From Candidatus Krumholzibacteriia bacterium (lineage in GTDB: Bacteria > Krumholzibacteriota > Krumholzibacteriia > Krumholzibacteriales > Krumholzibacteriaceae), in the NCBI GenBank assembly GCA_963836185.1, contig CAWIIQ010000001.1, positions 1,056,001-1,120,000 on the forward strand: a DNA stretch of 64,000 nucleotides, read 5' to 3'. The position numbers and the translations under genes are program-made. Positions 32,889 through 55,034 of this stretch are shown here, in pieces. The stretch's first letter is position 1. Each line of letters opens with the position of its first letter. Under the pieces are notes generated by a model, which saw nothing but the letters and a program-made list of their open reading frames with translations, was not told where the DNA came from and did not search any database.

Positions 32889-35157
32889 ATGTCTTCGGCT
32901 CGTCTCGAACCACGGATTTCCAACAACGCTCTCAGAGTGCTCGAGAGAAGGTATCTGCGCAAGGACGTTAACGGAAATCTGACAGAGACGCCGGAAGAAC
33001 TCTTCCAGCGGGTCGCGGCGAATATCGCCTCGGCCGAGAGGCGTTACGGTGACAACAAGAACCGCCTGGGCTGGGAAGATACGTTCTATAACATGATGGC
33101 CACCCTCGATTTTCTGCCCAATTCGCCGACCCTGATGAACGCCGGCGCCGAGCTCCAGCAGCTCTCCGCCTGCTTCGTCCTTCCGATCGAGGACTCGATG
33201 GAGAGCATCTTCGAGACGATCAAGAACACGGCGCTGATCCACAAGAGCGGAGGAGGCACGGGATTCTCCTTCTCGCGCATCCGCCCGAGGAACGACCGGG
33301 TCAAGACGACCAAGGGCATCTCGAGCGGGCCGATCTCGTTCATGACGGTCTTCGACGCCGCCACCGAAACGGTAAAGCAGGGCGGCACGCGCAGGGGCGC
33401 CAACATGGCGATCCTTCGCGTCGACCATCCCGACATCCTCGATTTCATCACGGCGAAGAAGGACAACAGAAAACTCAACAACTTCAACATCTCGGTCGCC
33501 ATCACCGAGGAATTCATGGAGGCGGTCAAGGCTGACCGCGACTATGAGCTGATCAATCCGCACGGCGGCGATGTCGTCGACAAGATATCAGCGAAGAAGG
33601 TCTACCAGATGATCGTCGAGCTCGCGTGGAAGAACGGCGAGCCGGGGATCGTTTTCATAGACAGGCTCAACGAGGATAATCCGACGCCCAACGCGGGGAT
33701 GATAGAGAGCACGAATCCCTGCGGGGAGCAGCCGCTTCTTCCATACGAGTCGTGCAATCTCGGTTCGATAAACCTGTCGCACATGGTCACGGAAGACGGG
33801 CGACAAGTCGAAGATCGATTTCAACAAGCTCGGCGAGACGGTGCGCAGGGCGACGCGGTTTCTCGACAACGTGATCGACGTGAACCGCTACCCGCTCAGC
33901 CAGATCAAGGATCAGACACTTGCCAACCGCAAGATCGGCCTCGGCGTCATGGGATTCGCCGACGCTCTCGTCAGGATGGAGATCCCCTACGACTCGGAGG
34001 AGGCCCTCGAGGTCGCCGAAGAGATCATGGGATTCATCCAGCGCGAGTCGACCGCGACGAGCCTGGAGCTGGCCGAAGAAAGGGGAGCCTTCCCCAACTT
34101 CAAGGGCAGCAGGTTCGATACTGAGGATGCGCCGAAGCGCCGCAACGCGACGACGACGACGATCGCTCCGACCGGCACGCTGAGCATCATCGCCGGGTGC
34201 TCGAGCGGTGTCGAGCCTCTCTTCGCTGTAGCCTTCATCAGGCATGTCATGGACAACGATGAGCTCGTCGAGGTAAACCCGGTCTTCGAGGAGATCGCCC
34301 GCCGCGAGGGATTCTTCAGCGAAGAGCTGATGAAGAAGATCGCCGAGGAGGGGACCGTTCAGGGGATAGAGGAGATACCCGAGCATTGGCGGCGTATCTT
34401 CGTTACCGCGCATGATATCACGCCCGAGTGGCACATCCGGATCCAGGCAGCCTTCCAGAAATACACCGATAATGCCGTATCCAAGACGGTGAACTTTCCG
34501 AAGTCCGCCACTAAGGAAGACGTCGAATCAGTGTACATCAAGGCGTACGAGATGGGCTGCAAGGGCGTGACAATATACCGTGACGGAAGCCGTCAGGAGC
34601 AGGTCCTCAACATAGGCTCTGTCAACCGCGAGACCGAAGACGGCGAACTCGAGCTGGGCGATGATCTGGGCGGACTGCTCAAGCCGAGGCCGCGTCCCGA
34701 GGTGACGACCGGCAAGACCCACAAGATGACGACGGGCTGCGGAAACCTCTACGTGACGATCAACGAGGACGAGCACGGCCCGTTCGAGGTCTTCACGCAG
34801 ATGGGCAAGGCGGGCGGATGCTCCGCCTCGCAGTCGGAGGCGATCAGCCGGCTGATATCTCTTTCGCTGCGCGCCGGAATCGATCCGAAGCAGATCGTCA
34901 AGCAGCTCCGCGGGATCAGGTGCCCCAACCCGGGATGGGAGAAGGGCGGCATGATCCTCTCGTGCAGCGACGCGATCGCCAGGGCGATCGAGCGGTACTT
35001 CCTCGAGGAGAAGACCCCGGTCGGCCACAAGGTCACCAAGATGTCGGCGGGATACCTCGACAAGGTCGCCGGCTTCTGCCCCGACTGCGGCGGCGTGATG
35101 GAGCACGAGGGAGGCTGCGCGGTCTGCCGCGAATGCGGCTTCTCCAAGTGCGGCTAA
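32889..35157 (+). CDS. nrdJ: Class II (B12-dependent) ribonucleotide reductase with TSCPD/zinc-ribbon C-terminus; frameshift ~33805
   Basis: [34 protein letters not shown], terminal CxxC pairs. Confidence 0.93.
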
Positions 35158-35740: not shown

Positions 35741-35817
35741 TGACAGGAGGAAGGACAGGCGATAAAATATAGAAAATAATGCTCCGGTTGCCATGGGTGG
35801 GGAAAGGAAGTGACGAC

Positions 35818-36789
35818 GTGGGCAATCTAAGGGAAGCTATGCGCCGGGAGCTGCGGCTCCGCAACTACAGTCCGGGCACGATCAGGACATATCTTCAGCA
35901 CATGACAGAATTCACCAGGCACTTCGGCCGAAGTCCGTCCGAACTCGGCAGGGAAGAGATAAACTCCTACCTGCTCCACATGACGGAAGTAAGAAAGGTC
36001 TCCGCCACATACAGGGACCAGGCCATAAGCGCGCTGAAATTCTTCTACGGAAGGGTGCTGAAGAAACAGCTCATCATCGAAGAACTCCCACGTCCGAAGA
36101 AAGAATTCAAACTGCCGTCAGTGCTGAGCACAAAAGAAGTAGCTCGGCTCTTCCAGGCAGTCAGAAACCGGAAGCATCTCACCATCCTGATGCTCCTCTA
36201 TTCCGGTGGTATGAGAGTAAGCGAAGTAGTCAGGCTCAAACCTGAGGACATCGATCCAGAAAGACACCTTATCAGGGTGCGAGGGGGAAAGGGACGGAAG
36301 GACAGGTACACAGTCCTCTCGGATACGGCTCTCGATGTCCTCCGTGATTATTACCTGTCATGGAAGCCGGAATATTTTCTTTTTGAGGGAAACAGGAAAG
36401 GTTCTCATCTGTCGACAAGATCGGTCCAGAACGTCGTTTCAGCGGCCAGAAAGCGTGCCGGGCTGAAGAAGAAGTTCAGCACCCATGTTCTCAGGCACAG
36501 CTTCGCGACGCACCTCCTTGAAAGCGGCACCGATTTAAGGTATATTCAAGAACTACTGGGGCACAAAAGTGCCAGGACGACACAGATCTACACACATGTA
36601 ACACGGAGGGATATCGCACGGATCGTTAGCCCGCTGGACAGGATGATGGAGGGGGAAGCAGCGGCGACAGGACCGATCGGAACATCCGAACGGAAGAAAT
36701 CTCCCACCCACCCCACCCATTTTACTGAACGTCCTCGTCGCAAACGAACCAAAAACCGTCAAAACAACGAACCGGACACACACAAATAA
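35818..36789 (+). CDS. Tyrosine recombinase (integron-integrase-like N-terminal SAM domain; no IntI-specific insertion)
   Basis: Intact R(GMRVSE)-K(KGRKDR)-H-x-x-R(HVLRH)-H(LGH)-Y(TQIY); start GTG 35818 or ATG 35779/35839. Confidence 0.95.
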   Translation: MGNLREAMRRELRLRNYSPGTIRTYLQHMTEFTRHFGRSPSELGREEINSYLLHMTEVRKVSATYRDQAISALKFFYGRVLKKQLIIEELPRPKKEFKLPSVLSTKEVARLFQAVRNRKHLTILMLLYSGGMRVSEVVRLKPEDIDPERHLIRVRGGKGRKDRYTVLSDTALDVLRDYYLSWKPEYFLFEGNRKGSHLSTRSVQNVVSAARKRAGLKKKFSTHVLRHSFATHLLESGTDLRYIQELLGHKSARTTQIYTHVTRRDIARIVSPLDRMMEGEAAATGPIGTSERKKSPTHPTHFTERPRRKRTKNRQNNEPDTHK

Positions 36790-36809
36790 ACTGTTATATG
36801 ATAGCCGAG
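36770..36809 (+). other. attI-like primary recombination site (GTT at 36793)
   Basis: AAATAAACT-GTTATATGATAGCCGAG; right part is the reverse complement (16/17) of the end of cassette 1; no attC hairpin upstream. Confidence 0.75.
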
Positions 36810-36816
36810 AGAGGCT

Positions 36817-37230
36817 ATGAGAAAGAAATACCGTAAACTTTTCACGATACTATTAGTATCAGCGTTATTGGCTTCTTGTGAAGCCAACGATATTGGAAAG
36901 TGCACACATATCCCTGTCGAAGGAGTCGCAACAATTGTCACAGTCTGAAGAGCGTTCTGAATACCAGGATTGTGGTATGGGGGTTTTATTATACATCGAC
37001 CTGGCTCCCGATTGTCCAATTTACGCTGAAAGATTTCAATACAAAATACTCGACTTCTGACTTTGTACCCCAAAAGATGGGTCGAAGCCGTTGGCTTGAT
37101 AGAAGGATCTCAGCATAGGTGTATTTACTTTGCTAAGGGTGGTCCTTGTCCTAACTATATCGTTTGGGAAGATATAGACGTACAAAGCATTGAAGATTCA
37201 TGTACTGTGTGGGCTGCGGAATCACCATGA
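36817..37230 (+). CDS. Cassette 1: lipoprotein family B; frameshifted
   Basis: MRKK...LLASC lipobox; C-terminus PKRWVEAVGLIEGSQHRC...DSCTVW matches the 49236 and 52940 proteins. Confidence 0.7.
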
Positions 37231-37254
37231 TTGGGTTATGGGAGCTCGGCCATC

Positions 37255-37394
37255 ATATAACAGCAGTGTTCGCGGCTGCAGGCCTTCGGCCTTTCGCTCA
37301 GATGGCCTTTGTCACGGCGGCCGCAGGGCGACTGCCGCGCCAACCGGGCCTGGCGGCCCGGACGGCCACCTCGCGAACACGACCAATGTTATGT
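37255..37394 (+). repeat. attC-like site 1
   Basis: ATATAAC..GTGTTCGCG..CGCGAACAC..GTTATGT. Confidence 0.9.
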
Positions 37395-37420
37395 GACATG
37401 ACATTGAGATAGGAGGGGTA

Positions 37421-38016
37421 ATGAAAAGGCTATCTGCGGTCATATTCTTACTATTGCTGATGACGTCCGCTAGCGTACTTGCTGACTCGGTACAATTTAC
37501 CATACGAGTTCATCGAGACGTTGAGGATATCTCTGCGCTAGAGGTGAAAACCTTTGAGATCATTTCGGGGGGACTATTCCCAGAAACTGAACTAGAAACA
37601 GAGATGAAGGAGAAGATTCGAGCACGGATCGAGTCTACTGGATTAGTCTATGATCCTTCAAAGAAGGACCTCTTTGTTGGTGTTATCTTTGTTGGCTTCT
37701 CCGAGCATGGGAACAAGCTACCTGGATTGGAAGATTGGCCAAGTCAAACCCATGGATCTGTTGATTCAGCTTATGCGCTTCTAACTGCAGAATCTGAGAA
37801 TACAGAAGGGCAAGGTGCATGGAGGTCCATCCAAATCCACATTCTTGCACCACCTATCAGGAAGTTCCGGTTCGGATCTGGACGGGCTCGGTTACATACG
37901 ATGGATTAGAGACCGATACTGATAAACTGGCAAATGTGATGTTGGAACAATTACTTCTTGAATATCCCGTGCCATCTGGAAAGCCAGAGTTGCGAGAAGT
38001 GATATTAAGTGAATAG
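37421..38016 (+). CDS. Cassette 2: exported hypothetical protein; frameshift ~37850
   Basis: Signal peptide, AGGAGG RBS, continues in the 37819-38016 frame. Confidence 0.7.
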
Positions 38017-38033
38017 TGGAGGGGTGTCACGTC

Positions 38034-38173
38034 ACATAACAGAGTGTTCGCGGCTGCAGGCCTTCGGCCTTTCGCATAGATGGCCTTTGTCACGGCGGCC
38101 GCAGAAGCGCCCGCCGCGCCAACCGGGCCTGAGGGCCCGGACGGCCACCTCGCGAACACGACCAATGTTATTC
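38034..38173 (+). repeat. attC-like site 2
   Basis: Near-identical copy of the repeat. Confidence 0.9.
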
Positions 38174-38200
38174 GCCACCTAACCTTGCAAAGGAGATAAT

Positions 38201-38368
38201 GTGGATGTATTGAAAATGTTGCTTCCTTTCGGGATTGCCTTTTTAGTGTTCTTAGCTATAAGGGAAGTAATGTGCTGGTACTTCAGAATTAACAATATGC
38301 TCAATATGCTCAATAGTATTGATACCAGTTTAAAAAGAATGTCGGGAAGGACAGACAGTTCTTCTTAA
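38201..38368 (+). CDS. Cassette 3: 55-aa single-TM protein (not in ORF track)
   Basis: AGGAG RBS, GTG start, MDVLKMLLPFGIAFLVFLAIREVMCWYFRIN...; fills the cassette. Confidence 0.75.
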   Translation: MDVLKMLLPFGIAFLVFLAIREVMCWYFRINNMLNMLNSIDTSLKRMSGRTDSSS

Positions 38369-38399
38369 GACAATACAATTGATTTTACGGTTAGGCGGC

Positions 38400-38539
38400 G
38401 TATAACAGTGTGTTCGCGGCTGCAGGCCTTCGGCCTTTCGCTAAGATGGCCTTTGTCACGGCGGCCGCTAGAGCGCCCGCCGCGCCAACCGGGCCTGGCG
38501 GCCCGGACGGCCACCTCGCGAACACGACCAATGTTATCT
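38400..38539 (+). repeat. attC-like site 3
   Basis: Near-identical copy. Confidence 0.9.
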
Positions 38540-38617
38540 GAAACCACACCTTATCGTGGTATAATTCAGCGTTGCGTGGATTCTGGCCACAAGACACTGT
38601 GCCCCAAGGATGATGAG

Positions 38618-40555
38618 ATGAAGAGCAAGAACCTCACAAGAGTACTGATCGCCTGCCTATTTATCATGATCTCTAACGAAATATCTGCTCAATGGTATGA
38701 CTTGGGGAATCCTGTGTTCATTGACCCGGGGATGTTTCAGGACACACACATTTCTTACGATGGCAATGGAGGCCTGTTCTTTACGTGGTGCGATTGGAGA
38801 AACGGGGGAGCCCCTTATCAGGCGGATGTCTATGCACAATATGTGAATGCTGACGGAATAGCACAATTCGGACTGTCGGGGATGCCAATCGATACGATCA
38901 GCGGCAATCAGTACAAGGCTAATGTTTCATATGTGGGAGGGGATTGCGCGGTGATTGTATGGTCGGACCTGATGGATGGATATAAATTGCGAGCTCAGCG
39001 CATTAATTCCGAAGGAATGGTATTCTGGGGAGACAGAGGTGTGGATGTATCAGAACAGTCAGGAATGGGAGAAGTCGCATCAGTGATTCCAGATATTAAT
39101 GGAGGAGCCATAATATCCTGGAGAAATTTTTATGTTTGGATTCAACGGCTGGATTCACTGGGCAATCGGATGTGGGGGGAGGACGGAATAAGAATTAACA
39201 ATATTGGGGACACTGTTGGCAGTGCTCCTGCAATTGTGAGTGATGGGGCGGGAGGCGCAATAATCGTATGGTCAGACTATCGCTCTGGGAGCATGACGCA
39301 TGACATATATGCTCAACGTGTTAACTCAAACGGGGATGAGTTATGGACAGACGGGGGATTGCCGATTAACAACAATGAAGGAGCTCAAACTCAACCCTCA
39401 ATAGTGTTTGACGGAAATAACTCCTTTATCAGTTGGTTTAACAATACATGGGACATCGGTGTTCAGAAAATAGATCACGATGGTAATCTCTTATGGAATG
39501 TTAATGGAGTATATATTAGTCCAATAGAGCCCAGACCTAAGTATCGAGCCATGGCTGCCGATAATCATGGAGGTGTGATTGCCGCTTGGGAAGATTTTAG
39601 GAATACGAGTTCAACTGAATCTGATATTTACGCTCAGCGGATTCGCTCAGATGGGGAGATTGCATGGGATATAGATGGTATTGCGATTTACATTGGTGGA
39701 GGGGATCATCAACAGCCAGCAATTTCTACCACATCATCAGGCGATGCTATCATTGTTTGGACTAATTATTATGGAATTTACGCACAACGAGTGGATACCA
39801 GCGGAGCAATATATTGGCCAGAATACGGTGAAAACATTTCAAGAGGGCCAGGGTGCCAACACTGGCCACTTATCCAGAACATCGATGACAAAGAATTATT
39901 CGTTGTGTGGAATAAGAATGAGAATGATGCATGTTATGGAAACGACGATTTATATGTTCAAAAGATTGATCTTGAAGGACACATTGTAGGCACATTTCTA
40001 GATCAGGCCGAATGGTATTGTGTCTCTGATGAAATATGTTTGAAATGGTCGATTGTCTTATCCGCAAATAATCTTGAATTCATTATACTGCGCACATTAA
40101 GCGGAGAGCATAAGTACAGAGAAGTTGGCCGGATTATTGGATTCGAACGTCAATCCGAATTTTGCTATATTGATAGCACATGTAAACTTGGGGAAAAGTA
40201 CATATATCGTGTTATCGCTTCCATGGAAGATGATGAGATGTTGCTTTTTGAAACTACAACAATCCTGATGCCAAATCTAAAGTATGTTCTTCATCAGAAT
40301 TATCCGAATCCGTTCAATCCAATAACCAAAATCTCATACAGTCTGCCAAAACAGTGCATCGTCAGCTTAAAGATATACGATATTATGGGAAAAGAGATTG
40401 TATGCCTTGTTAACAATCAATTGCAGCAAGGTGAACAGGTAATACATTGGGATGGTAAAAACCACTTCGGAGATCTTGTTTCTTCCGGAACATATTTTTG
40501 CAAGCTTTTTGCTGGAAAACAGACAAAAGTAATTAAATTGATATGTCTGAGATGA
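38618..40555 (+). CDS. Cassette 4: secreted repeat (propeller-like) protein with FlgD/T9SS-like C-terminal domain
   Basis: Repeated DG.GGAIIVW.D.R..DIYAQR units; QNYPNPFNP; signal peptide. Confidence 0.85.
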   Translation: MKSKNLTRVLIACLFIMISNEISAQWYDLGNPVFIDPGMFQDTHISYDGNGGLFFTWCDWRNGGAPYQADVYAQYVNADGIAQFGLSGMPIDTISGNQYKANVSYVGGDCAVIVWSDLMDGYKLRAQRINSEGMVFWGDRGVDVSEQSGMGEVASVIPDINGGAIISWRNFYVWIQRLDSLGNRMWGEDGIRINNIGDTVGSAPAIVSDGAGGAIIVWSDYRSGSMTHDIYAQRVNSNGDELWTDGGLPINNNEGAQTQPSIVFDGNNSFISWFNNTWDIGVQKIDHDGNLLWNVNGVYISPIEPRPKYRAMAADNHGGVIAAWEDFRNTSSTESDIYAQRIRSDGEIAWDIDGIAIYIGGGDHQQPAISTTSSGDAIIVWTNYYGIYAQRVDTSGAIYWPEYGENISRGPGCQHWPLIQNIDDKELFVVWNKNENDACYGNDDLYVQKIDLEGHIVGTFLDQAEWYCVSDEICLKWSIVLSANNLEFIILRTLSGEHKYREVGRIIGFERQSEFCYIDSTCKLGEKYIYRVIASMEDDEMLLFETTTILMPNLKYVLHQNYPNPFNPITKISYSLPKQCIVSLKIYDIMGKEIVCLVNNQLQQGEQVIHWDGKNHFGDLVSSGTYFCKLFAGKQTKVIKLICLR

Positions 40556-40602
40556 TTATATACTCAATTTGAGCACTATACTTATAAGTCAGGTGTGGCT
40601 TC

Positions 40603-40742
40603 AGATAACAGAGTGTTCGCGGCTACAGGCCTTCGGCCCTTCGCTCAGATGGCCTTTGTCACGGCGGCCGCTAGAGCGCCCGCCGCGCCAACCGGGCCTG
40701 GCGGCCCGGACGGCCACCTCGCGAACACGACCAATGTTATCC
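40603..40742 (+). repeat. attC-like site 4
   Basis: Near-identical copy. Confidence 0.9.
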
Positions 40743-40777
40743 GACATCTTATTGAAGCTTAAAGAGGTGAAATTGCT

Positions 40778-41409
40778 ATGAAAATGATGAAGCCAATTGT
40801 TGTTCTGATAGTACTGATACTCCTGTTCTCGGTCGCAAAGTATGTCAGAGTTCAAGCATTTCATATTAGAAAGTGAGAGCAAGGTTGAGCTTCCTAATTA
40901 TTTTTATGATGACCTAGAGCCATACGTTACAACAATAGATCGCCAGCATTCTGACAAAGAGGATGATTCGCCTTGCTGAATCTGTTTATCCACCAAGAAG
41001 GAAGATGCTTGAGAAGCATCCAGGTTTGCCAGAAGAAATGGTAGCAGATTCACTGTGGGTGGCTGAAGAGCACGGCGATTTAAAAATACCCTACACACTA
41101 ACTGCGAGTGCAGTTCGGTACTATATTGATCTGATGAAGAGGTACGAAAAGAAGGACGAAACGCTCGATAGTATCCCGAAAAATGCAAAGTTAACATATA
41201 AAGCAGACATGCACGGTCCATCAACTTTCATTATTAATGGTGAATTGTATGAAAATGTTAAGGTTGTAACCCTTGAGTTAAGCTGGTCCACCTATACTAA
41301 TGCTTTGAATGCTGGAGGATTCAGTATTGTCAAGTTTGTGATTTTCGACAGGGAGAAGAATATTCTGGGTGTGTTTGGGGATGGATTCCCTGGAGAATGG
41401 GCGTCATGA
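40778..41409 (+). CDS. Cassette 5: exported hypothetical protein; frameshifted
   Basis: GAGGTG RBS, signal-like start at 40778, main ORF 40963-41409. Confidence 0.6.
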
Positions 41410-41437
41410 ACATTGGGAATATCCAATAGAAGACGTC

Positions 41438-41576
41438 GGATAACAGAGTGTTCGCGGCTGCAGGCCTTCGGCCTTCGCTCAGATGGCCTTTGTCACGGCG
41501 GCCGCTGGAGCGCCCGCCGCGCCAACCGGGCCTGGCGGCCCGGACGGCCACCTCGCGAACACGACCAATGTTATTC
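41438..41576 (+). repeat. attC-like site 5
   Basis: Near-identical copy. Confidence 0.9.
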
Positions 41577-41999
41577 GCCATGTGGCAGATGAATAAATTT
41601 AACTTCGATTTCTTCTTATTTTTTAGGACTCTTCTTTCCCCGCAGTACAGCCCCATCCAGCCTCAGGGTGACTTCCGGAGTCTCTAAAGCCTGATCGATC
41701 CAGTACCTCATATTTTCTCCGATGTTAAGGCCTAGACTCGTGCCGTAACGGGCCTGAGGGTGGCTTGCGGCTGAGACTGAGATCCTCGATCCTGAGGTTT
41801 TAAGGGGCCGAGATTGGTAGGGGAGAGCTCGTAAGGAACTTGCTTTCAACGATCGGGGCAATTCAGCGTACGACTTCGGGTCGCGCTGTCGCATCTTTAT
41901 CAGCCAAGGGTTGGCTGAAAGACTATTGAACCGGAGAGATTAAAGGATTAGATTTATAGGTGAGGGGTGATCTAGTATGAATTCCACACGGCGTATAAC
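41570..41999 (+). other. Cassette 6: near ORF-less cassette, homologous to cassette 8
   Basis: Bounded by matching inverted ends; shares sequence blocks with 45214-45645. Confidence 0.8.
41926..41954 (+). promoter_or_regulatory. Sigma-70-like promoter in cassette 6
   Basis: TTGAAC-N17-TAGATT, conserved in cassette 8. Confidence 0.65.
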
Positions 42000-42106
42000 A
42001 GAGGTGTTCGCGGCTGCGCATGTCACCCGGCCTGCAGAGCACGCCGGGCGCCAATGCTTCGCGTACACCGCCTGCGGCGGCGTCGCGAACACTCACAATG
42101 TTATAC
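41993..42106 (+). repeat. attC-like site 6 (divergent interior)
   Basis: Same ends and GTGTTCGCG/CGCGAACAC stem, different loop. Confidence 0.85.
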
Positions 42107-42125
42107 GATAAATGCCCTTATTCCT

Positions 42126-42155
42126 TTGACATATTCAATTCTACATAGATAGAAT
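42126..42155 (+). promoter_or_regulatory. Cassette-borne promoter of the kinase gene
   Basis: TTGACA-N18-TAGAAT, 8 nt before ATG, no RBS. Confidence 0.55.
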
Positions 42156-42163
42156 CTCCATAC

Positions 42164-45062
42164 ATGTTAGGGGAAACAATCTCACATTATGAAATTCTCG
42201 AGAAGCTCGGCGAGGGCGGGATGGGCGTAGTCTACCGCGCCCGTGACACGAAGCTCGACCGCGAGGTGGCTATCAAGCTCCTGCCCCCGCACCTGAGCTC
42301 CGATCCCGAGGCGGTAAAGAGGTTCGTCCATGAGGCGAAGACCGCCTCGGCCCTGAACCACTCCGCTATAGGCGTCATCCACGAGATAGACGAGACGGAT
42401 GACGGCCAGACGTTCATCGCAATGGCCCTCTACGAGGGGGGACTCTCAGGGAGAAGCATCGACAGCGGCAGCATGACATCTAGGCGAAGCAGTAACCATA
42501 GCCTCCCAGATAGCCTCGGGTCTCGACCAGGGCCCACGAGAAGGGGATAGTCCACAGGGACATCAAGCCGCAGAACATACTTCTGACCAGAGACGGCGAG
42601 GCGAAGATAATCGACTTCGGCCTAGCGAAGCTCGCCGGAAGGACGAAGCTGACGAGGGACGGGAGTACGCTCGGCACTGCCGCCTACATGTCCCCCGAGC
42701 AGGCGAGGGGAGAAGAGGTCGATCACCGTTCGGACATCTTCTCTCTCGGGACGATCCTGTACGAGATGCTCGCCGGTGAGCCACCATTCAAGGGGGAGCA
42801 CGAGGCGGCGTTGCTCTACGGGATAGTGCACGAGGAGCATGAAGAGATATCGGAGAAGTGCGGGGGCATAGCACCGGAATTGTGCAATGTGGTCGGAAAG
42901 ACGCTGAAGAAGGAAAAGGAAGCAAGGTATCAGAACGCGGCGGACCTGAAAGCTGAATTGAAGAGGTCGAGCACCGGCAGTGTCGATGAGGGCGGACCGA
43001 GGGATACGAAGGACGCTGGAAGAGGTAAAGGGTTCTGGATAGGCATTGCGGCGGTCACCGTGACACTCACAACTGCCGTACTTCTCGTAATGACCGGACG
43101 TGAGCCGGCGCCGCTTACCGCTTCGGAGATGACTCTCGCTGTGGTTGATTTTAATGACCTAGCAACAGAACCGGATCCTATAAAATCCAAGACGATTACA
43201 GAGCTGCTAAATACCTCCCTGGGAGATTTCTGTCCGATACGCGTTCAGAGCCCGGAACGAGTAAGGGAATGTCGAAGACAGCTTTTCGGTTCAACTGAAG
43301 CGCAGATAGAGGAAGGGCAGGAACTGGAGATCGCGCGCAGGAGCGAAGCGACCTATTTGCTTACTGGCAGCATCAGTGTCGTTGGCAACGACGGTTTTAT
43401 CTCTTGGAGGCTCATAGATGTACTAAGTGGGACTATCATCAAGGCCGGAACAGTCGAACCAGGTGAGATGATGGCAGTAGTTGATAAGATCGTGGAGGTC
43501 GTATTGCCGGAGATCGCAGAAGCTTCGGGAGTTGAGCAGACTGCAGAGCAGGTTTCCGTGGCACAATCTCGACATCTTCACAGCAGGCGTTTGAGCATTA
43601 CGTTAGGGGTAAGATAAATCATGACAGCGATCGTCCAGTCGAAGCACTCGATGAATACACGAAAGCTGTCGGATTAGATTCCAGTTTTGCTCTTGCCTGG
43701 TTTGCTATGTCTAGACTCTACTATGGTGCCATGATGATTAGGTATGATCCGGCACTTTATAATAAATACAATGAGCTTGCCTTAAGGTATGAATCCAGGA
43801 TGGGCACCAAGGAGAGGATGCAGCTTCGTGCTATTAATCTTGGAGGAGTCAAAACGATAGAAAAACTCAAGGAAATCCTCGAGCTCTGGCCTGATGACCG
43901 CGAGACGCTGCAGATGCTCGTCCTCAGAACCCACTATAATTGGATGCAAAAAGAATGTATCGAGTACTCTCGAATCGGATTGACGCTATACCCGGAAGAC
44001 CAGGTTTTCGGAGGAAGTATCTATATCACATCTCTTAATAATTTGGGTCTAAGCCAAGAAGCGATGAAGGCGTCCAGAGAATTTATCAGAAAATATCCTG
44101 ACGATTCGGCAGCTTGGCGTTCTCTTGCCGAGACATTTGTGGTCATGGGGCAACCGGACAGTGCCGAGGCGATCTGCAGAATAATTTTGGAGAAATATCC
44201 TGAAGGCAGCCAGAATGCAGAGGCAAGGCGGATGATAGCACGATGTGCATATCTTGCAGGCGATCTAGATGAATCGATTTCAAGGTATGATAGATTATTG
44301 TCAGACGCGAACCTGGATGAATCTACTCGTCAGGAGATTCTTTCTAACTATACTCACATTATAGATCTTACTTATGTATATCGAGAAGCTGGCCGCTACT
44401 ACGACGCCTTGCGGACCTTGAATGAGGCAAGACCGTACTTCGGCAACCGACCTGATCGCTGGGAATTACAAATGGGCTATCTGCTAGTAGATATTGGCAG
44501 GAACAAGAATGCGTTGAAACTCGCTGAAGAGATGCTTGCATCAGATAATATGCCAATGCAGAGGTATGCCAGACGATTCATGGGCAAGGCGCAAGTTAAT
44601 AATGGTGATATCCAAGGTGCTCAGGAAACTGTATCGATACTGGATGGACTTGGCATAGTCAGGGGACCTATCTACAAGTACCATTCATTTTTCACTCAGG
44701 CATATATTGCATTGGCAAGGAATGATGCTTCAGTGTCTCTAAAGCATCTTGATGATGCGGCCCAGATAGTGGGCTTCTCATACTGCATGTTCGGAATCGA
44801 GCTGAAGACATTGCAGGCGGAGGCGAACAGACTGGCAGGGGACCTGGAGGCGGCAGCCTCGATCCATGAAGAACTGCTGAGGATTCATGGCGGACATGCA
44901 TTGTCACACTTCGAACTCGGTAAACTGTATGAGGCAATGAGAAGAACGGACGAGGCAAAACTGCACTATAATAGATTCCTAGAGATGTGGAATAACGCTG
45001 ATGATGGATTACCTCAACCTGCACTCGCGAGGGAGAGACTGACAGCGCTTAAAGGTGTTTAA
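42164..45062 (+). CDS. Cassette 7: Hanks-type Ser/Thr kinase-TM-TPR protein; several frameshifts
   Basis: [38 protein letters not shown]-terminus. Confidence 0.85.
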
Positions 45063-45081
45063 ATAGAGCAGGGCTTTCATC

Positions 45082-45220
45082 GCATAACAGTGTGTTCGCG
45101 GCTACAGGCCTTCGGCCCTTCGCTCAGATGGCCTTTGTCACGGCAGCCGCAGGGCGACTGCCGCGCCAACCGGGCCTTGAGGCCCGGACGGCCACCTCGC
45201 GAACACGACCAATGTTATCC
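45082..45220 (+). repeat. attC-like site 7
   Basis: Near-identical copy. Confidence 0.9.
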
Positions 45221-45645
45221 GCTATGTGGCAGCTGATTGAATTTATCTTCGATCTTTTCTTTTTATTGGGACCCTTCTTCCCGCCCATCCCAACCATTAC
45301 CAGCCGGAGGTCGACTTCCGAGAGTCTCTAGAGCTAGTTCTGCAAGGTGACGAGTCCAACCCCTGTAAGAATAATGCCTCTATAGATGATCCGGCCTGAG
45401 GGTGGCTTGCGAGGCGCGACTGAGATCCTCGGGTCAAGAGGCTTTAAGGGCCGAAATAGGGGTAGGGGAGCGATCGTCAGGGACTTGCTATCATCGGTCT
45501 GAGGCAGGTTCATCTCTCGACTTCGGGAGGCGCAGTCGCAGTTCTATCAACGGGTCAACGCCGAAAGACTATTGAAAGTTCGAGATTAACGGTATAGATT
45601 TAGAGGTGAGGGGTGCCTATATATGAATTCCACACAGCGGATAAC
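45214..45645 (+). other. Cassette 8: near ORF-less cassette, homologous to cassette 6
   Basis: Ends GTTATCCGCTATGTGG / CCACACAGCGGATAAC; shared blocks with cassette 6. Confidence 0.8.
45572..45600 (+). promoter_or_regulatory. Sigma-70-like promoter in cassette 8
   Basis: TTGAAA-N17-TAGATT. Confidence 0.65.
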
Positions 45646-45767
45646 AGCAGTGTTCGCGGCTACGGGCCTTGAGGCCCTCGCTCAGATGGCCTTTACCGGC
45701 CTTTGGCGCGCCGGCCAACCGGGCCTGAGGCCCGACGACCAACTCGTTAACATGACCACTGTTATGG
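45639..45767 (+). repeat. attC-like site 8 (degenerate right arm)
   Basis: Left arm canonical; right arm CTCGTTAACATGACCACTGTTAT. Confidence 0.75.
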
Positions 45768-46291
45768 AGGGACGTTTTAGAAAATGTAACATACGAATCA
45801 TTCTGGTTGTTCTCGTCTTAACTTCAGCTCTTATATCCTGTGGAGAGGATAGCTGTGAGTGCCCTACACCTAATCCTATTGAATACACCAGCGTTGTGTT
45901 CTACTACAAAGATCATCCATATTGCTATTCAAGTACTGCTGGATTAGAGGTAGAGCTTTATGTCGGTGATGAACTCATAGGGTATTGGCATTATGGCTCT
46001 AATCCAGCAGATCCAAATCTAGATTATCCTAATTCGCAACCTTTTCCGGTTGAGCTCGGAAGTGCCTTGAACCTTGAATTCAGGTATTGGGATAAATCAG
46101 GTCATGAGATGAGAGACACAGCAAATCTCATCATGGATGATGAAGATTGCACTTACGTCAGTTTCTTTGCCGACATAGAAAATCCCTGCCTGGGTGCTGA
46201 GTTATGTGATAGTTGTATTGTTTTTGAGATCGATGAAAACATGAAGTGTGAGGGTGCTGATTCAATCTATGTCGCTGTAGTGACTAATTGA
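45764..46291 (+). CDS. Cassette 9: Cys-rich lipoprotein
   Basis: LISC lipobox; start uncertain. Confidence 0.7.
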   Translation: MEGRFRKCNIRIILVVLVLTSALISCGEDSCECPTPNPIEYTSVVFYYKDHPYCYSSTAGLEVELYVGDELIGYWHYGSNPADPNLDYPNSQPFPVELGSALNLEFRYWDKSGHEMRDTANLIMDDEDCTYVSFFADIENPCLGAELCDSCIVFEIDENMKCEGADSIYVAVVTN

Positions 46292-46304
46292 TGGAGACAG
46301 CGGC

Positions 46305-46445
46305 ATATAACAGTGTGTTCGCGGCTACGGGCCTTGCGGCCCTTCGCTCAGATGGCCTTTGTCACGGCGGCCGCAGAAGCGCCCGCCGCGCCAACCGGGC
46401 CTGGCGGCCCGGACGGCCACCTCGCGAACACGACCAATGTTATCC
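46305..46445 (+). repeat. attC-like site 9
   Basis: Near-identical copy. Confidence 0.9.
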
Positions 46446-46461
46446 GCAAGCGTATTATGAT

Positions 46462-46857
46462 ATGAACAAGTTCCCAGCAATATTTTTTTTGTCACTCCTT
46501 CTGGCTTCCTGCCGAGATCCTTTCGCGCATGAATGGGAAAACTTATATCAGCTCAGCGCAGATCAGATTATTCTACCCGATACTGCTCAAATATTTCAAC
46601 CGATGCAGGTCAAAGTGCAGGTTACTTTAGATACATCTAATCATAATTACAAAGACCAATATATCGAAACAACACCAGATGGCTATCTGATAGTGCTGAT
46701 TGGTGTAATAGAAGATACGAGATTTCCAGATAATGACCCGGATCCCAGAACAGAATGGCATTCTTTTAACCTTATCCCATTTAAGAAAGGAGAAGTAATC
46801 ATTGAGGGGAAACGAGTCAATTCAGAGAATCTTATTGATTCAGTGTATGTTCAGTAG
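46462..46857 (+). CDS. Cassette 10: lipoprotein family A
   Basis: LASC lipobox; PDT, EWHSF, DSVYV motifs. Confidence 0.8.
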   Translation: MNKFPAIFFLSLLLASCRDPFAHEWENLYQLSADQIILPDTAQIFQPMQVKVQVTLDTSNHNYKDQYIETTPDGYLIVLIGVIEDTRFPDNDPDPRTEWHSFNLIPFKKGEVIIEGKRVNSENLIDSVYVQ

Positions 46858-46870
46858 TGGGCACGCCTGC

Positions 46871-47010
46871 GCATAACAGAGTGTTCGCGGCTACGGCCTT
46901 CGGCCTTTCGCTCAGATGGCCTTTGTCACGGCGGCCGCTGGAGCGCCCGCCGCGCCAACCGGACTTGGCGGCCCCGGACGGCCACCTCGAAAACACGACC
47001 AACGTTATAC
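46871..47010 (+). repeat. attC-like site 10
   Basis: Near-identical copy. Confidence 0.9.
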
Positions 47011-47039
47011 GAAAGGCCGGGAAGCGATAAAAAAGAACC

Positions 47040-47075
47040 TTGACAGATATGCATATATGATGCATACTGATGCAT
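47040..47075 (+). promoter_or_regulatory. vapBC promoter/operator
   Basis: TTGACA-N17-CATACT overlapped by three ATGCAT palindromes. Confidence 0.65.
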
Positions 47076-47271
47076 ATGAGAACTACACTGAATATTGACG
47101 ATGATCTGATTCGCAAGGCAGCGAAGATGACAGGGATCAGCGAGAAGACTTCCCTGGTACGCCTCGGGCTTGAAGCATTGATCGCTCTTGAGAGCGCGAG
47201 AAGGCTAGCAGCTCTTGGCGGCACAGAGAAAGATCTTGGCCCTGATTCCTCGCAAACGAACGAGTTCGTGA
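47076..47271 (+). CDS. vapB: Cassette 11: VapB antitoxin (RHH type)
   Basis: MRTTLNIDDDL..EKTSLVRLGLEALI; apparent +1 indel fuses it to vapC. Confidence 0.85.
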
Positions 47272-47273
47272 GT

Positions 47274-47630
47274 ATGATCCTGGCTGATACATCTGTATGG
47301 ATCGATCATCTTCGCAATGGAAACAAGCGGATGGCTCTTTTTCTGAACGAAGGTGTCGTTTTGTGTCATCCTTTCATACTCGGGGAATTGGCCTGTGGGA
47401 ACCTCAAAAACAGAGCTAAAATACTCGATATGCTTGCTTCCCTTCCGACAATGCCAGTTGCAGAGCACAGTGAAGTGCTTGATTTCATTTCCCGATACAA
47501 ATTCCAAGGGAAGGGTATAGGGTGGATCGATGCCCATCTGTTGGCATCAACATTTCTGGCGAAAAGCCGAATCTGGACTCTCGACAAATCTTTACTAAAG
47601 ATAGCAAAAGACCTGAAGGTCTCAATATAG
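47274..47630 (+). CDS. vapC: Cassette 11: VapC PIN-domain toxin
   Basis: MILADTSVWIDHL, GELACG, IDAHLLAS, WTLDK. Confidence 0.9.
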   Translation: MILADTSVWIDHLRNGNKRMALFLNEGVVLCHPFILGELACGNLKNRAKILDMLASLPTMPVAEHSEVLDFISRYKFQGKGIGWIDAHLLASTFLAKSRIWTLDKSLLKIAKDLKVSI

Positions 47631-47662
47631 GGCAATCAAAAGGTTTAGTAGCCGGCCACTTC

Positions 47663-47803
47663 GTATAACAGAGTGTTCGCGGCTGCGGGCCTTGCGGCCC
47701 TTCGCTCAGATGGCCTTTGTCACGGCGGCCGCAGGAGCACCCGCCGCGCCAACCGGGCCTGGCGGCCCGGACGGCCACCTCGCGAACACGACCAATGTTA
47801 TCC
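47663..47803 (+). repeat. attC-like site 11
   Basis: Near-identical copy. Confidence 0.9.
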
Positions 47804-47820
47804 GAAAGCGCGGGATATGT

Positions 47821-48202
47821 ATGAATAAAAAAATCGCATTATCGATCCCATTACTTCTTGTAGTTGCATGTAATCTATTCAAGCCACCTGAAAAGATACA
47901 AACATGGGCTGATGTCGAACAGATTGTTGTTCCTGATACTGTTGACTATTTCGAAGCTTTCGAGATCAGCGCTGAAATTTCAATGGACCATACATGTAAG
48001 TATGTAGGTCCTGTGCTGGAAGAAACTTCTGAGGGCTGCTCCATTACCATTATCGTTGAATCTGTGGAAGTGAGCTTTCATGAAAAGGATATTTCTGAGT
48101 GGCATACCTTTACTCTGAGACCTCTCGAATTGGGATCTTACATCATCAGGGTGAAAAGTAAGAATGTGGAAGATTCTTGTTGATTCAACTTACGTTCGTT
48201 AG
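47821..48202 (+). CDS. Cassette 12: lipoprotein family A; probable frameshift near the 3' end
   Basis: VVAC lipobox; VEQIVVPDT, EWHTF; LVDSTYVR in the adjacent frame. Confidence 0.75.
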
Positions 48203-48212
48203 ATGCGCCATC

Positions 48213-48353
48213 GGATAACAGTGTGTTCGCGGCTACAGGCCTTGCGGCCTTTCGCTCAGATGGCCTTTGTCACGGCGGCCGCAGGAGCGCCCGCCGCGCC
48301 AACCGGGCCTGGGGGCCCGGACGGCCACCTCGCGAACACGACCAATGTTATGC
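48213..48353 (+). repeat. attC-like site 12
   Basis: Near-identical copy. Confidence 0.9.
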
Positions 48354-48369
48354 GAAGGCGAGGGGAACA

Positions 48370-48759
48370 ATGAAATTAGCGGTTGGAATAATTGCAATTA
48401 TCGTTATTTGCTCTTCCTGCGAAGATCCACCAGTAAAAGTATGTGACCGACCAGTAATGTTGGAAGTAGAACAGTTGATGGCTCCGGATTCTTGCAGGTT
48501 AGGTGAGCAGGCACAATTACAAGTCGAAGTAATTCTTAACGGTTCAAGTTATAGTTATTTCGGCCCCGACATTAACGACACAGATTCGGGTTGTAGAATA
48601 AGGATTATGGGAGAAAAAGATGAATGTGCACTTAACACTCCTTGCATTTGCTACGAGTGGCATTCGTTTGTTATTTCCCCCTCACAAACGGGAATATACA
48701 TAATAGAGATAATTAATTCTCAAGCTGATGATTTAGCGGATACAATAACAGTGTATTAG
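48370..48759 (+). CDS. Cassette 13: lipoprotein family A
   Basis: CSSC lipobox-like; VEQLMAPDS, EWHSF, DTITVY. Confidence 0.8.
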   Translation: MKLAVGIIAIIVICSSCEDPPVKVCDRPVMLEVEQLMAPDSCRLGEQAQLQVEVILNGSSYSYFGPDINDTDSGCRIRIMGEKDECALNTPCICYEWHSFVISPSQTGIYIIEIINSQADDLADTITVY

Positions 48760-48769
48760 CTGTGCCATC

Positions 48770-48908
48770 GGATAACAGAGTGTTCGCGGCTGCAGGCCTT
48801 CGGCCTTTCGCTCAGATGGCCTTTGTCACGACAGCCGCAGGGCGACTGCCGCGCTAACCGGGCCTGGCGGCCCGGACGGCCACCTCGCGAACACGACCAA
48901 TGTTATGT
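48770..48908 (+). repeat. attC-like site 13
   Basis: Near-identical copy. Confidence 0.9.
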
Positions 48909-48935
48909 GCAATGCTGTGCATTAATTTAAAGGGG

Positions 48936-49100
48936 ATGAAGTTGAAGAAACTATCTCTGATCATCGGAATTCTCGCATTAGCCGTTGCAATAATCATCTT
49001 CATATATGCTTCTGGTGCTAGGCGAATTTATAGCGGCCTCTTATTTATATTGATAGCTATCATCCAATTCACTTTTGCTCTTCGAAAAGGTGATAAATGA
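48936..49100 (+). CDS. Cassette 14: small two-TM protein
   Basis: Two hydrophobic helices; fills the cassette. Confidence 0.75.
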   Translation: MKLKKLSLIIGILALAVAIIIFIYASGARRIYSGLLFILIAIIQFTFALRKGDK

Positions 49101-49116
49101 TCAATAAGGGCACTGC

Positions 49117-49189
49117 ACATAACAGAGTGTTCGCGGCTGCGGGCCTTGCGGCCCGGACGGCCATCTCGCGAACACGACCAACGTTATGC
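49117..49189 (+). repeat. attC-like site 14 (short, internal deletion)
   Basis: 73 bp; both arms intact, central ~67 bp missing. Confidence 0.85.
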
Positions 49190-49235
49190 GAAAAGCCGCA
49201 GACGTTAAAACCTACCCCTGGGAGGAGATGATGTG

Positions 49236-49692
49236 ATGTTGAAATCAGGAATGTTCATCATTGCCGCTGTTTTTTTTATTCTCGCTCCTTATTTCTTGTG
49301 AGGATGAAGAAGGCATCATTTGTGGGGGAGAGTGCCTTTATCATGAGATACCAGGCACAGCATCTATTATTTCTGTTACTGATATTGATGGATCTACCTA
49401 TTGTGGAGATCCTGTCGAGGTGATTTACAACTTTACTCCAGATGATCCAAGCGATATTGATCCAGACTATTTGACGATTTGGCCACTCGATAATATTTAC
49501 TACAAGATAGGTCAAAACAATCCGCCACGAAGATGGGTTGAAACGCATGGACTTCTGGCAGGAACAGACCATCCATGTACAAGATTTAGGATTTACAAGG
49601 GATCTTGTGTGCCTGTTGGATACAATTTTGATGGCATAGATGATTACAGTGTCTCTGATTCATGTGATGTATGGGAGCAAGAGATACCATAA
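49236..49692 (+). CDS. Cassette 15: lipoprotein family B; poly-T frameshift near the start
   Basis: GGAGGAG RBS; LISC lipobox; GTASIISV, FTPDDPS, PPRRWV, DSCDVW. Confidence 0.75.
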
Positions 49693-49716
49693 GTAAACTT
49701 GATTACTGCGACCACC

Positions 49717-49847
49717 GCATAACAGAGGCATTTGCGTACTCGCCTGGCTTCGCCAGAACTAGGCTGTCACGGCCGTTGCAATTTGAGTGCATGATGATAG
49801 ATAAATAGGGGATTGCGGCTGCGCCGCGAATGCTCACAATGTTATAC
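49717..49847 (+). repeat. attC-like site 15 (divergent, compensated stem)
   Basis: GCATAACAGAG-GCATTTGCG...CGCGAATGC-TCACAATGTTATAC. Confidence 0.8.
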
Positions 49848-49875
49848 GGCATGCAGTTCATGGCAGGGGAATAAA

Positions 49876-50418
49876 TTGATCCATATAGTATTTGATCTCG
49901 AAGCTACCTGCTGGGAACAGGGCACAACGCCGAGTCGAATGGAAATTATTGAAATTGGGGCCACAAGGCTGCACCCTGATACATACGAAATCGATAGTGT
50001 GTTCTCTACCTTTGTGCGACCTGTCGAGGAACCTGAGCTAAGCGACTTCTGCAAGAACCTAACATCCATCCAACAAACTGACGTCGATCTTGCGCCTGTT
50101 TTTCCCGAGGCGATGGATATGTTCTTTGCCTGGATTGATGCTAGTGAAGTTACCTTTTATTCCTGGGGCTACTATGATATCAAGCAGATCCGAATGGATT
50201 ACCAGCGTCATGGAAATTCTGAGCCGGCGGCATTCAGTAGCCACGTTAATTTGAAGAAGCTATTTTCTGAGATCTATGGCAGGAAGCCTTGTGGAATGCG
50301 GAAGGCTCTAAATATACTTGGGTTGGGGCATGAAGGGACGCATCATAGGGGTGTGGATGATGCAAAGAACATTTCCAGGATCGCTAAAGTAATTCTTCCG
50401 GAATATTATGGCTCCTGA
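49876..50418 (+). CDS. Cassette 16: DEDDh 3'-5' exonuclease (ERI-1/KapD-like)
   Basis: FDLEATC, EIIEIGA, LTSI, SWGYYD, HHRGVDDA. Confidence 0.88.
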   Translation: MIHIVFDLEATCWEQGTTPSRMEIIEIGATRLHPDTYEIDSVFSTFVRPVEEPELSDFCKNLTSIQQTDVDLAPVFPEAMDMFFAWIDASEVTFYSWGYYDIKQIRMDYQRHGNSEPAAFSSHVNLKKLFSEIYGRKPCGMRKALNILGLGHEGTHHRGVDDAKNISRIAKVILPEYYGS

Positions 50419-50465
50419 AGACCTGAGTATTGGGGAACTGGACTTTGAATAGGTGGCTGCACGCC

Positions 50466-50525
50466 GGATAACAGTGTGTTCGCGGCTGCAGGCTCAGGCG
50501 GCCACCTCGCGAGCATAAGCAATTG
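50466..50525 (+). repeat. attC-like site 16 (eroded, terminal)
   Basis: GGATAACAGTGTGTTCGCGG...CACCTCGCGAGCAT, no GTTA. Confidence 0.75.
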
Positions 50526-50639: not shown

Positions 50640-52859
<2,220 letters not shown>

Positions 52860-52939
52860 AAGGAAAGATTAAGGTATCGATTAGTTTAATAGATGCTCAT
52901 GAGGTCAGGAAAATCCTAAATCTCTTTCAGGAGAGGGGT

Positions 52940-53362
52940 ATGAAAGAATTCTATGTAATTGTCTTTTGTGGCTTAATCCTGCCATTTATACCTTCCTGTG
53001 GTTGTGATTCCATGCAGGTCGAAGGAACAGCCAAGATTCTTTCTGTTACAGTGATAGATACCCTGACAGAATGTGGTGGTCTGGCTGAAGTGCGTTTTGA
53101 TTTTATTCCAGATGATCCGTCGATGACTCAGGAAACCAGATTGAGCATGTACCAGACGACAGATGTAAAGTGGAGAGTGCTGTATTACGAGTATCCCCCG
53201 AAGAAATGGTTGGATTTAGTCGGTGTAACTGAGGGATCTGAGCAAAGATGCAGTTTTGAGTGCTATTGGGGTGGAGGTTGTGGAGGATGGAACTGGGATT
53301 TCCTCGATGTCTCTGAGGAGTCAGCGATCGATTCATGTGAGGTATGGGAGGGAGAGGAGTAG
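52940..53362 (+). CDS. Lipoprotein family B member outside the array
   Basis: GTAKILSV, FIPDDPS, PPKKWL, DSCEVW. Confidence 0.75.
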   Translation: MKEFYVIVFCGLILPFIPSCGCDSMQVEGTAKILSVTVIDTLTECGGLAEVRFDFIPDDPSMTQETRLSMYQTTDVKWRVLYYEYPPKKWLDLVGVTEGSEQRCSFECYWGGGCGGWNWDFLDVSEESAIDSCEVWEGEE

Positions 53363-53365
53363 GGC

Positions 53366-53782
53366 TTGTTTAAAATCGTAGTAGTTTTCATCTTATTCGT
53401 TACTCTTTTTCCCGGATGTTCTGAGGAGAGTGTAGCTCCTGAACCAGGGGGCGCTATTGACGATCCTTGCAGAGGGAACAATCCTCCTGCAATTGAAGCT
53501 CTGCCTGACACATTCGTAGCACTCGGTGATACGATCTGGCTGTACGCCGTCGGGCACGATCCTGATCATGACGAGATTCATTTCCTCAGCAGCTGCAACA
53601 ATATAACATGGGCACAATTGCAGTCTGGAGATCTGCCGATATTTGGAGTAAACGCTAAAACAGGAGTGTTCAGATTTGTGCCGCGATCTTACGATGATCC
53701 CTACAGGGTATTCGAGGTCTGGGCCGCGGATTCCTGTGACGCTATTAATTCCTCGGAATTCACTATTCAAGTTACGCAATAG
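53366..53782 (+). CDS. Lipoprotein with Ig/cadherin-like region
   Basis: FPGC lipobox-like; NNPP, DPDHD motifs. Confidence 0.7.
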   Translation: MFKIVVVFILFVTLFPGCSEESVAPEPGGAIDDPCRGNNPPAIEALPDTFVALGDTIWLYAVGHDPDHDEIHFLSSCNNITWAQLQSGDLPIFGVNAKTGVFRFVPRSYDDPYRVFEVWAADSCDAINSSEFTIQVTQ

Positions 53783-53861
53783 AATATATAGACTCACAAA
53801 ATCTGTAGGACAATGCGGAAATACCACTTGTCAGAATCTGTGATGACGGTATTTTCAAGGT

Positions 53862-55013: not shown

Positions 55014-55034
55014 AGTCGAACCGGACGATTATCC

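Follow-up and report, generated by a model that had tools for sequence, protein, structure and literature searches.

A cassette array with privately matching ends and a fixed A/C mismatch behind an integron-like recombinase that lacks the IntI insertion

Introduction

Can an integron-like recombinase lacking the insertion thought essential for integrons serve an array of mobile cassettes? The question is raised by a 64,000-nucleotide stretch of Candidatus Krumholzibacteriia bacterium (assembly GCA_963836185.1, contig CAWIIQ010000001.1, positions 1,056,001 to 1,120,000 of the forward strand; hereafter the window, whose own numbering is used), in which a tyrosine recombinase gene is followed directly by an array of cassettes at 36793-50523. 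The private complementarity of the cassette ends, a fixed A/C mismatch at position 11, a second A/C mismatch in the inner stem of the repeats, boundaries at GTT, and co-variation of the ends in homologs are confirmed here.

Statements from the literature refer to those parts of the cited sources that were available to us. The insertion of the integron integrase IntI is called essential for integron function, and it is incompletely conserved in an "integron-like" subgroup of tyrosine recombinases (PMC8138268); for members that lack it, cassette arrays are not described in the available part of that source. A hit to the IntI insertion is a requirement of IntegronFinder (bioRxiv 2022.02.06.479319), and very few Bacteroidetes integrons were reported in a 2022 IntegronFinder survey (PMC9024848). 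Further background was taken from PMC4889954, PMC8618304, PMC10013915, PMC8352920, and bioRxiv 2022.09.11.507474.

Private Cassette Ends in the Window

The region was parsed into 16 cassettes (c1, 36793-37261, to c16, 49841-50472), 15 complete repeats, and one truncated repeat, with AAC...GTT hairpins separating the co-oriented cassettes throughout. A previous reading of the sequence alone had claimed that each cassette start is the reverse complement of its own end for 13-19 bp, and the three end pairs that it quoted (c1, c2, and c4) are exact. It had proposed comparing self and non-self ends with shuffles, and the claim stood this comparison: over ten variable positions (6, 7, 9, 10, and 12-17) the mean self match was 7.5/10 versus 3.05 over 240 non-self pairs of the 16 cassettes, and the total self match of 120 was reached in 0 of 200,000 permutations (permutation maximum 89). 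Self match is at chance level from position 19 on. Allowing for position 11 and one further mismatch, the stems measure 13-21 bp in 13 of the 16 cassettes; they are short in c9 (5 bp), c15 (8 bp), and c13 (9 bp). The first two of these had been named as an exception and a partial case, and both are weak; c13 is a third weak case that had gone unnamed. Position 6 is often mismatched, being paired in just 9/16 cassettes.

Counts at positions 8 and 11 agree with those given previously. On the top strand C is found at position 8 and at position 11 of all 16 ends (16/16 each), and the starts have G at position 8 (15/16) and A at position 11 (14/16), 14 of them having both. Position 11 is thus an A/C mismatch in 14/16 cassettes and a Watson-Crick G-C pair in the remaining two. 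The features of the array, all on the + strand, are as follows.

36783..36795, +, attI-like head, sharing bases with the recombinase stop codon; G of the first crossover at 36793; no hairpin upstream; same motif before the first cassette in relatives
36793..37261, +, cassette 1; self-complementary ends of 17 bp, outer mismatch A36803/C37251
37262..37387, +, repeat 1 (type example); inner stem of 9 bp, side branch, continuing helix; inner mismatch A37302/C37369
37388..38040, +, cassette 2; open reading frame (ORF) of 162 aa without Pfam family; repeat 2, 38041-38166
38167..38406, +, cassette 3; ORF of 50 aa; repeat 3, 38407-38532
38533..40609, +, cassette 4; 645-aa protein with C-terminal secretion sorting domain; longest stem; repeat 4, 40610-40735
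40736..41444, +, cassette 5; repeat 5, 41445-41569
41570..41999, +, cassette 6; ORF-less family, homologs first in other arrays; distinct repeat 6, 42000-42099, inner A/C kept with different flanking pairs
42100..45088, +, cassette 7; Ser/Thr kinase-TPR gene, in pieces in the assembly; repeat 7, 45089-45213
45214..45645, +, cassette 8; paralog of cassette 6, ORF-less family; repeat 8, 45646-45760, degenerate, read through in frame into cassette 9
45761..46311, +, cassette 9; exception, start no longer matching its own end; repeat 9, 46312-46438
46439..46877, +, cassette 10; repeat 10, 46878-47003
47004..47669, +, cassette 11; VapB-VapC toxin-antitoxin pair; repeat 11, 47670-47796
47797..48219, +, cassette 12; repeat 12, 48220-48346
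48347..48776, +, cassette 13; weak ends, G at position 11; repeat 13, 48777-48901
48902..49123, +, cassette 14; repeat 14, 49124-49182, internal-deletion form of 59 nt
49183..49723, +, cassette 15; partial ends; divergent repeat 15, 49724-49840
49841..50472, +, cassette 16; 3'-5' exonuclease
50473..50523, +, last repeat, truncated, without closing GTT; the array ends before katG

An ORF at 45623-46291 leads out of cassette 8, across the degenerate repeat 8, and into cassette 9, the one with ends that no longer match; this fits decay of that junction. The cassettes have a G+C content of 37-51% and the host 56-57%.

Recurrence of the Outer Mismatch

Two further sets of cassettes were retrieved without use of positions 6-17, after an early motif-light scan had been swamped by chance matches and was replaced by stricter ones. 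Genomes within each set are related, and the counts are of non-independent events. Metagenome loci were fetched with a pattern placed within the repeat, and they contain 17 complete cassettes, of which two are near-identical. All 17 starts have A at position 11, A/C is found in 15/17, and positions 7, 9, and 12 are paired in 17/17; among 36 ATAAC ends, C was found at position 8 in 36 and at position 11 in 34. For Bacteroidota, 26 loci were picked for long contigs, and a detector based on the repeat alone found 159 co-oriented sites and 2 on the opposite strand. The 93 consecutive cassettes that were scored (gap 150-1300 nt, 14 loci) have A at position 11 in 92 and A/C in 80, with pairing of at least 0.90 at positions 4-9 and of 0.72-0.83 at positions 12-14. 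The fixed A/C pair that had been claimed for the window therefore recurs in both sets. The companion claim of a fixed C-G pair at position 8 holds in this clade but is ruled out as a general rule by the Bacteroidota starts, which have A in 44, G in 22, C in 15, and T in 12 (n = 93). Single loci from Spirochaetota and Firmicutes have the same cassette ends. In the Firmicutes locus (L068:1-5200) the cassettes are on the upstream side of the recombinase gene and point the other way, which is the arrangement of classical integrons, and the repeats are very long. In one Bacteroidales array (L255) a small cassette is repeated many times between larger ones, and a one-base bulge shifts its position-11 mismatch.

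Classical integrons served as a control (38 cassettes from 12 loci, two false sites having been removed by eye). Pairing of their ends was 0.68, 0.61, 0.58, 0.53, and 0.37 at positions 8-12 and then at chance, and A/C was present at position 11 in 2/38. Missed sites could lower these values, so the comparison was repeated on cassettes matching at 6 of the 7 positions 4-10. This gave A/C in 1/22 classical versus 69/76 Bacteroidota cassettes, and pairing at positions 12-14 of 0.23 versus 0.84. Pairing beyond the 7-bp R box, as noted previously, is seen here, but classical cassettes also pair above chance to about position 12, and extended pairing as a property unique to this class is rejected in part. 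The distinctive features, compared with classical cassettes, are the fixed A/C together with the pairs beyond it.

A Second Mismatch in the Repeats

The sequence-only reading had mentioned neither the repeats' departure from the classical form nor their inner-stem A/C mismatch, nor that the recombinase lacks the IntI insertion. The window repeats have an inner stem of 9 bp, a side branch, and a continuing helix. A rule for classical attC sites (5-nt spacer, L box with extrahelical G), which yields at least two sites in 15/27 control loci, is passed by 0/15 of them. Counted along the continuing helix beyond the side branch, an inner A/C is present in 12/15 repeats, including repeat 6 with its other flanking pairs, and absent in repeats 8, 14, and 15. 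The same mismatch is found in Bacteroidota (mainly Flavobacteriaceae) at the 15th base after AAC in 105/123 unique arm pairs with well-paired neighbours, or in 16/24 repeat types; in Bacteroidales it is present in 24/31 sites and among the parsed metagenome repeats in 21/29.

If the count is offset by 4 nt, the inner mismatch becomes position 11 of a box mirroring the outer one, and the base profiles of the two boxes give their best or tied correlation at this offset (r 0.43-0.53; best in Bacteroidales). In classical sites the L box starts from the 6th base, the extrahelical C (top strand) is the 9th, and an unpaired A is the 16th, which is the 11th base of the box strand; among 74 such sites this A is bulged in 36 and in an A/C mismatch in 7. 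That base is the conserved extrahelical T, held in VchIntIA by H240, H241, and P232, and the alpha-I2 region contacts the extrahelical G (PMC5027507, PMC3053210). An Rfam search of the window and related arrays matched no family, and a lead to the Flavo-1 motif found no support.

Recombinase without the IntI Insertion

Two features, both on the + strand, precede the array.

35779..36789, +, tyrosine recombinase of 336 aa, integron-like, without IntI insertion, co-oriented with the array; gene end 3 nt short of the first GTT
36518..36546, +, promoter-like by consensus match only, within the recombinase gene; candidate promoter of the cassettes

The recombinase matches Pfam families PF00589 and PF13495 and has the catalytic residues R146, K171, H236, R239, H262, and Y271, which are invariant in 23 relatives. 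Among solved structures, the Vibrio integron integrase VchIntIA (2A3V) is its best relative both in sequence and in predicted fold. The integron integrase model TIGR02249 matches in two stretches with 230.9 bits, below its cut-off of 265, and the insertion region has 59 residues versus 100-101 in IntI, leaving a gap in the alignment to 2A3V. The protein passes the cut-off of the XerA-type model NF040815 (244.8 versus 220), but in trees it clusters apart from Xer, and the genome has XerC- and XerD-like genes besides. H210 aligns with VchIntIA H241 and is nearly invariant in this clade. A conserved T pocket as a general feature was rejected, since only this clade has it and Flavobacteria lack the histidine.

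Close named relatives of the recombinase are from Candidatus Krumholzibacteriota. Matches were found in 24/151 genomes of the phylum, in 83/101 genomes of the family of a Winogradskyella genome (Flavobacteriaceae-level), and, by profile, in 79/151 genomes of the Bacteroidales-centred order; a plasmid search gave distant relatives only. The first self-complementary cassette begins 3-425 nt past the recombinase stop codon in 33/41 loci, of which 21 had been preselected for the signal. In relatives different cassettes follow the same head motif at GTT, consistent with an insertion site at the 3' end of the gene. The Flavobacteriaceae head sites (L043, L154, L155, L159, and L161-L166) differ from the head here and have a small palindrome just before GTT, past the recombinase stop codon. 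Family members in 3 to 15 copies are present in G155, G595, G549, and G573, possibly on mobile elements, and no cassettes were seen in L035. A quick tree and a careful one, the latter with unsettled bootstrap and p-AU 0.226, give IntI as one clade but do not fix the deeper order, and with it any ancestral position of the insertion-less enzymes.

Predicted Folding and Cassette Exchange

Folding of both strands with each cassette circularised in silico, as had been suggested, predicts the long stem only if a cassette's own ends are joined. The bottom strand of this circular form has on average 13.9 predicted outer pairs and -53.6 kcal/mol, compared with 6.5 pairs and -46.4 kcal/mol for the array form. 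The preference for the bottom strand proposed previously is borne out in prediction: this strand is the more stable in 14/15 sites, and position 11 is predicted to be paired in 12/15 circular bottom strands versus 1/15 top strands.

The claim that the units are bounded in or near GTTAT agrees with the behaviour of homologous cassettes, whose different upstream sequences switch exactly at GTT. A sediment contig is identical to c6 plus repeat 6 and diverges from the window at 42104, the end of GTTAT. In L002, L003, L204, and L216, members of the c6 family come directly after the attI-like head; those of the window and of L215 follow repeats. Five copies keep their own repeat type, with c8 as the exception. 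At positions 9-10 their starts and ends co-vary in three states, with one mismatch in L216. A c10 homolog is the first cassette in L004, c11 homologs follow other repeats, and L161 has an identical cassette twice, with the same downstream and different upstream repeats.

Cassette 7 matches, from its first base and including a promoter-like site, a paralog encoding a 970-aa kinase-TPR protein in the same genome (G000:C3 near 211577; L251, L274). The C3 copy is absent between the same two genes in 3/5 relatives, the other two having one other insert and one contig end. Birth of c7 from this chromosomal gene was rejected on that ground; inserted between genes that abut in three relatives, the C3 copy resembles a cassette that was domesticated and has decayed at a secondary site, and not a source.

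Proposed Mechanism and Alternatives

These results are probably best explained by an integron-like system in which the bottom strand of a circular cassette adopts a fold of two wobble-marked boxes and the adjacent enzyme inserts the cassette at G/TT of the head site; strand and orientation would be set by the wobble, as a substitute for the extrahelical G. The mobile unit would be a cassette plus its downstream repeat. Each unit would move as a circle, the bottom strand of which is predicted to fold into a hairpin of two roughly symmetric boxes of about 14 bp, each with a T.G wobble at box position 11, and crossover would take place at G/TT into the site at the 3' end of the recombinase gene. 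As the outer box is fully paired only in the circle, integration would be favoured over excision. The wobble pairs only on the bottom strand and would thereby mark strand and orientation, taking over from the classical extrahelical G; the recombinase lacks the insertion that would bind such a base. The recurring mismatch probably serves as a signal in folded DNA for an integron-like enzyme without the domain thought essential for integrons. Its T occupies the same register as the extrahelical T in classical attC, and the protein may read it in a flipped-out state.

Several observations weigh against this. Plain A/C was found in just 10/22 Bacteroidales cassettes, and 10 further ones are copies of the one small L255 cassette, with the mismatch shifted by a bulge. 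The inner mismatch is not universal, several repeats of the same phylum (L106, L109) keeping the A but, as judged by eye, pairing it with T. Single bulged bases do exist, on the opposite arm and in variable places (54 bulges by position 14 in 123 sites), and in the Flavobacteriaceae set an offset of 0 ties with that of 4 over positions 4-14 (0.50 versus 0.49). The histidine equivalent to H241 is not kept in Flavobacteria. Many insertion-less relatives have no cassettes in the DNA examined, so the family is not always the head of an array. Sites in array form pair over about 6.5 bp only, which leaves excision unexplained. One cassette occurs in L168 and L170 with 97% identity and is followed by a different repeat in each. 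Repeats can thus change partners, for which cleavage at the opposite side of the symmetric site may be the route. No circle, recombination, or binding was observed, evidence of circles having been sought in contigs with shares up to 0.18.

A wider proposal is put forward tentatively, as one that we hold to be possible and somewhat doubtful. The arrays would form a widespread second class of integrons, whose single-stranded site has two-fold symmetry and offers each recombinase subunit a T.G wobble to read at position 11 of a box. The T would be the homolog of the attC extrahelical T, and the class would retain an older state; from that state, acquisition of the insertion and of the extrahelical G would have led to classical integrons. 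Its private ends would make insertion efficient and excision rare.

Alternatively, the system could be integron-like with a wobble that no protein reads, which only tilts folding to the bottom strand or keeps the inverted ends imperfect, the conserved A being an ordinary base contact. In agreement with this, the A is more conserved than its partner (92/93 versus 81/93 in Bacteroidota; A at the inner 15th base in 112/123), classical starts also favour A at position 11 (45/76), Flavobacteria do not have the candidate T-binding histidine, and the bottom strand is also the more stable in array form, with position 11 seldom paired. We nevertheless regard it as unlikely, since one wobble adds little to the predicted strand difference of 9 kcal/mol and in different phyla the mismatch keeps to a single position of both boxes, next to bases that vary freely.

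If recombination were instead double-stranded in the manner of Xer, the matching ends would be a by-product of cassette making or of template-switch repair of inverted repeats, and the A/C at position 11 would reflect different bases read in the left and right boxes. The score above the XerA-type cut-off and the Xer-like spacing in the insertion region would fit, as would the poor pairing of sites in array form. The site centre is about 6 nt, and Xer sites also have a centre of about 6 nt. A reader of double strands needs a consensus, however, and positions 6-17 are nearly without one and match only within a cassette; moreover, the ends keep co-varying after cassettes have diverged, and inner stems co-vary around the fixed mismatch. 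We consider this reading quite improbable. Weaker still, to the point of being very improbable, is that the neighbouring recombinase is incidental and the cluster, being integrase-less, is served in trans by the genome's classical IntI at C1:2072034-2072864: this gene does exist, with attC sites of its own, and its presence counts against the integron-like system proposed here, but it appears frameshifted in the assembly, no window repeat has classical geometry, such cassettes are carried by G152 and G154 with no IntI above the cut-off, and the first self-complementary cassette begins within 425 nt of the recombinase stop codon at most of the loci tested.

The classical integron in the same genome (C1:2066000-2072864; L286) has an IntI above the family cut-off with an apparent frameshift at its start, and a few co-oriented classical attC sites.

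Relation to Known Systems

Classical integrons share with the window a recombinase beside the insertion site, co-oriented single-gene cassettes, AAC/GTT triplets closing the hairpin, starts that match their own ends, and a T that is conserved as the 11th base on the inner strand. The window differs in having no IntI insertion and no extrahelical G in the L box (0/15), an inner box starting one base closer, and an outer stem of 13-21 bp with the fixed A/C, whereas classical pairing fades by position 12 and A/C is rare there. The array thus departs from the definition of an integron in two respects, the insertion and the attC geometry, and we do not file it as an integron despite its apparently integron-like working. 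Co-orientation of recombinase and array is shared with the integrons of Treponema (PMC3607928). XerA, XerC, and XerD, which act with dif, resemble the window enzyme in passing NF040815 and in having no insertion; unlike them, it heads a cassette array in a genome that has its own XerC- and XerD-like genes.

Among published layouts, that of rAID-1 in Bacteroidales (Ross et al., bioRxiv 10.1101/471110) comes closest, with a 5' XerD-like recombinase, co-directional genes of low GC, and integron-like intergenic repeats. It was reported in 226/423 Bacteroidales genomes, against 79/151 for the present recombinase profile, membership in rAID-1 being defined by more than 44% identity to BF9343_RS08045, and the available main text gives no hairpin, inverted-end, or mismatch anatomy (bioRxiv 10.1101/471110). 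Here too at least two co-directional genes lie downstream of a 5' recombinase; rAID-1 cargo is defined by a G+C content of 41% or lower, which covers part of the range of the window cassettes. Unlike rAID-1, the window comes from a host outside Bacteroidota, and no interbacterial immunity families were found among the cassette proteins scanned in Pfam, a scan that covered the cargo apart from some small ORFs. Bacteroidales loci with the present recombinase were compared by site design, which they share. The position-11 mismatch and the long private ends had no description in the literature searched, which included few subscription papers and did not extend to the motif in figure S4 of the rAID-1 report.

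Relatives without the insertion are common in Flavobacteriaceae-level and Bacteroidales genomes and often head arrays with one shared site design. If the system works as proposed, mobile cassettes are going undetected in large numbers, a mechanism becomes available for rAID-1, and the origin of folded-single-strand recombination by a Xer-like enzyme becomes testable.

Other Features of the Window

Frameshifted genes were found in the assembly at 32889-35157 (ribonucleotide reductase-like, by eye), 36817-37230 (c1), 42164-45062 (c7), and 49236-49692 (c15), and some of these frameshifts may be sequencing errors. Past katG, positions 52847-57495 hold small same-strand genes of lower GC without repeats.

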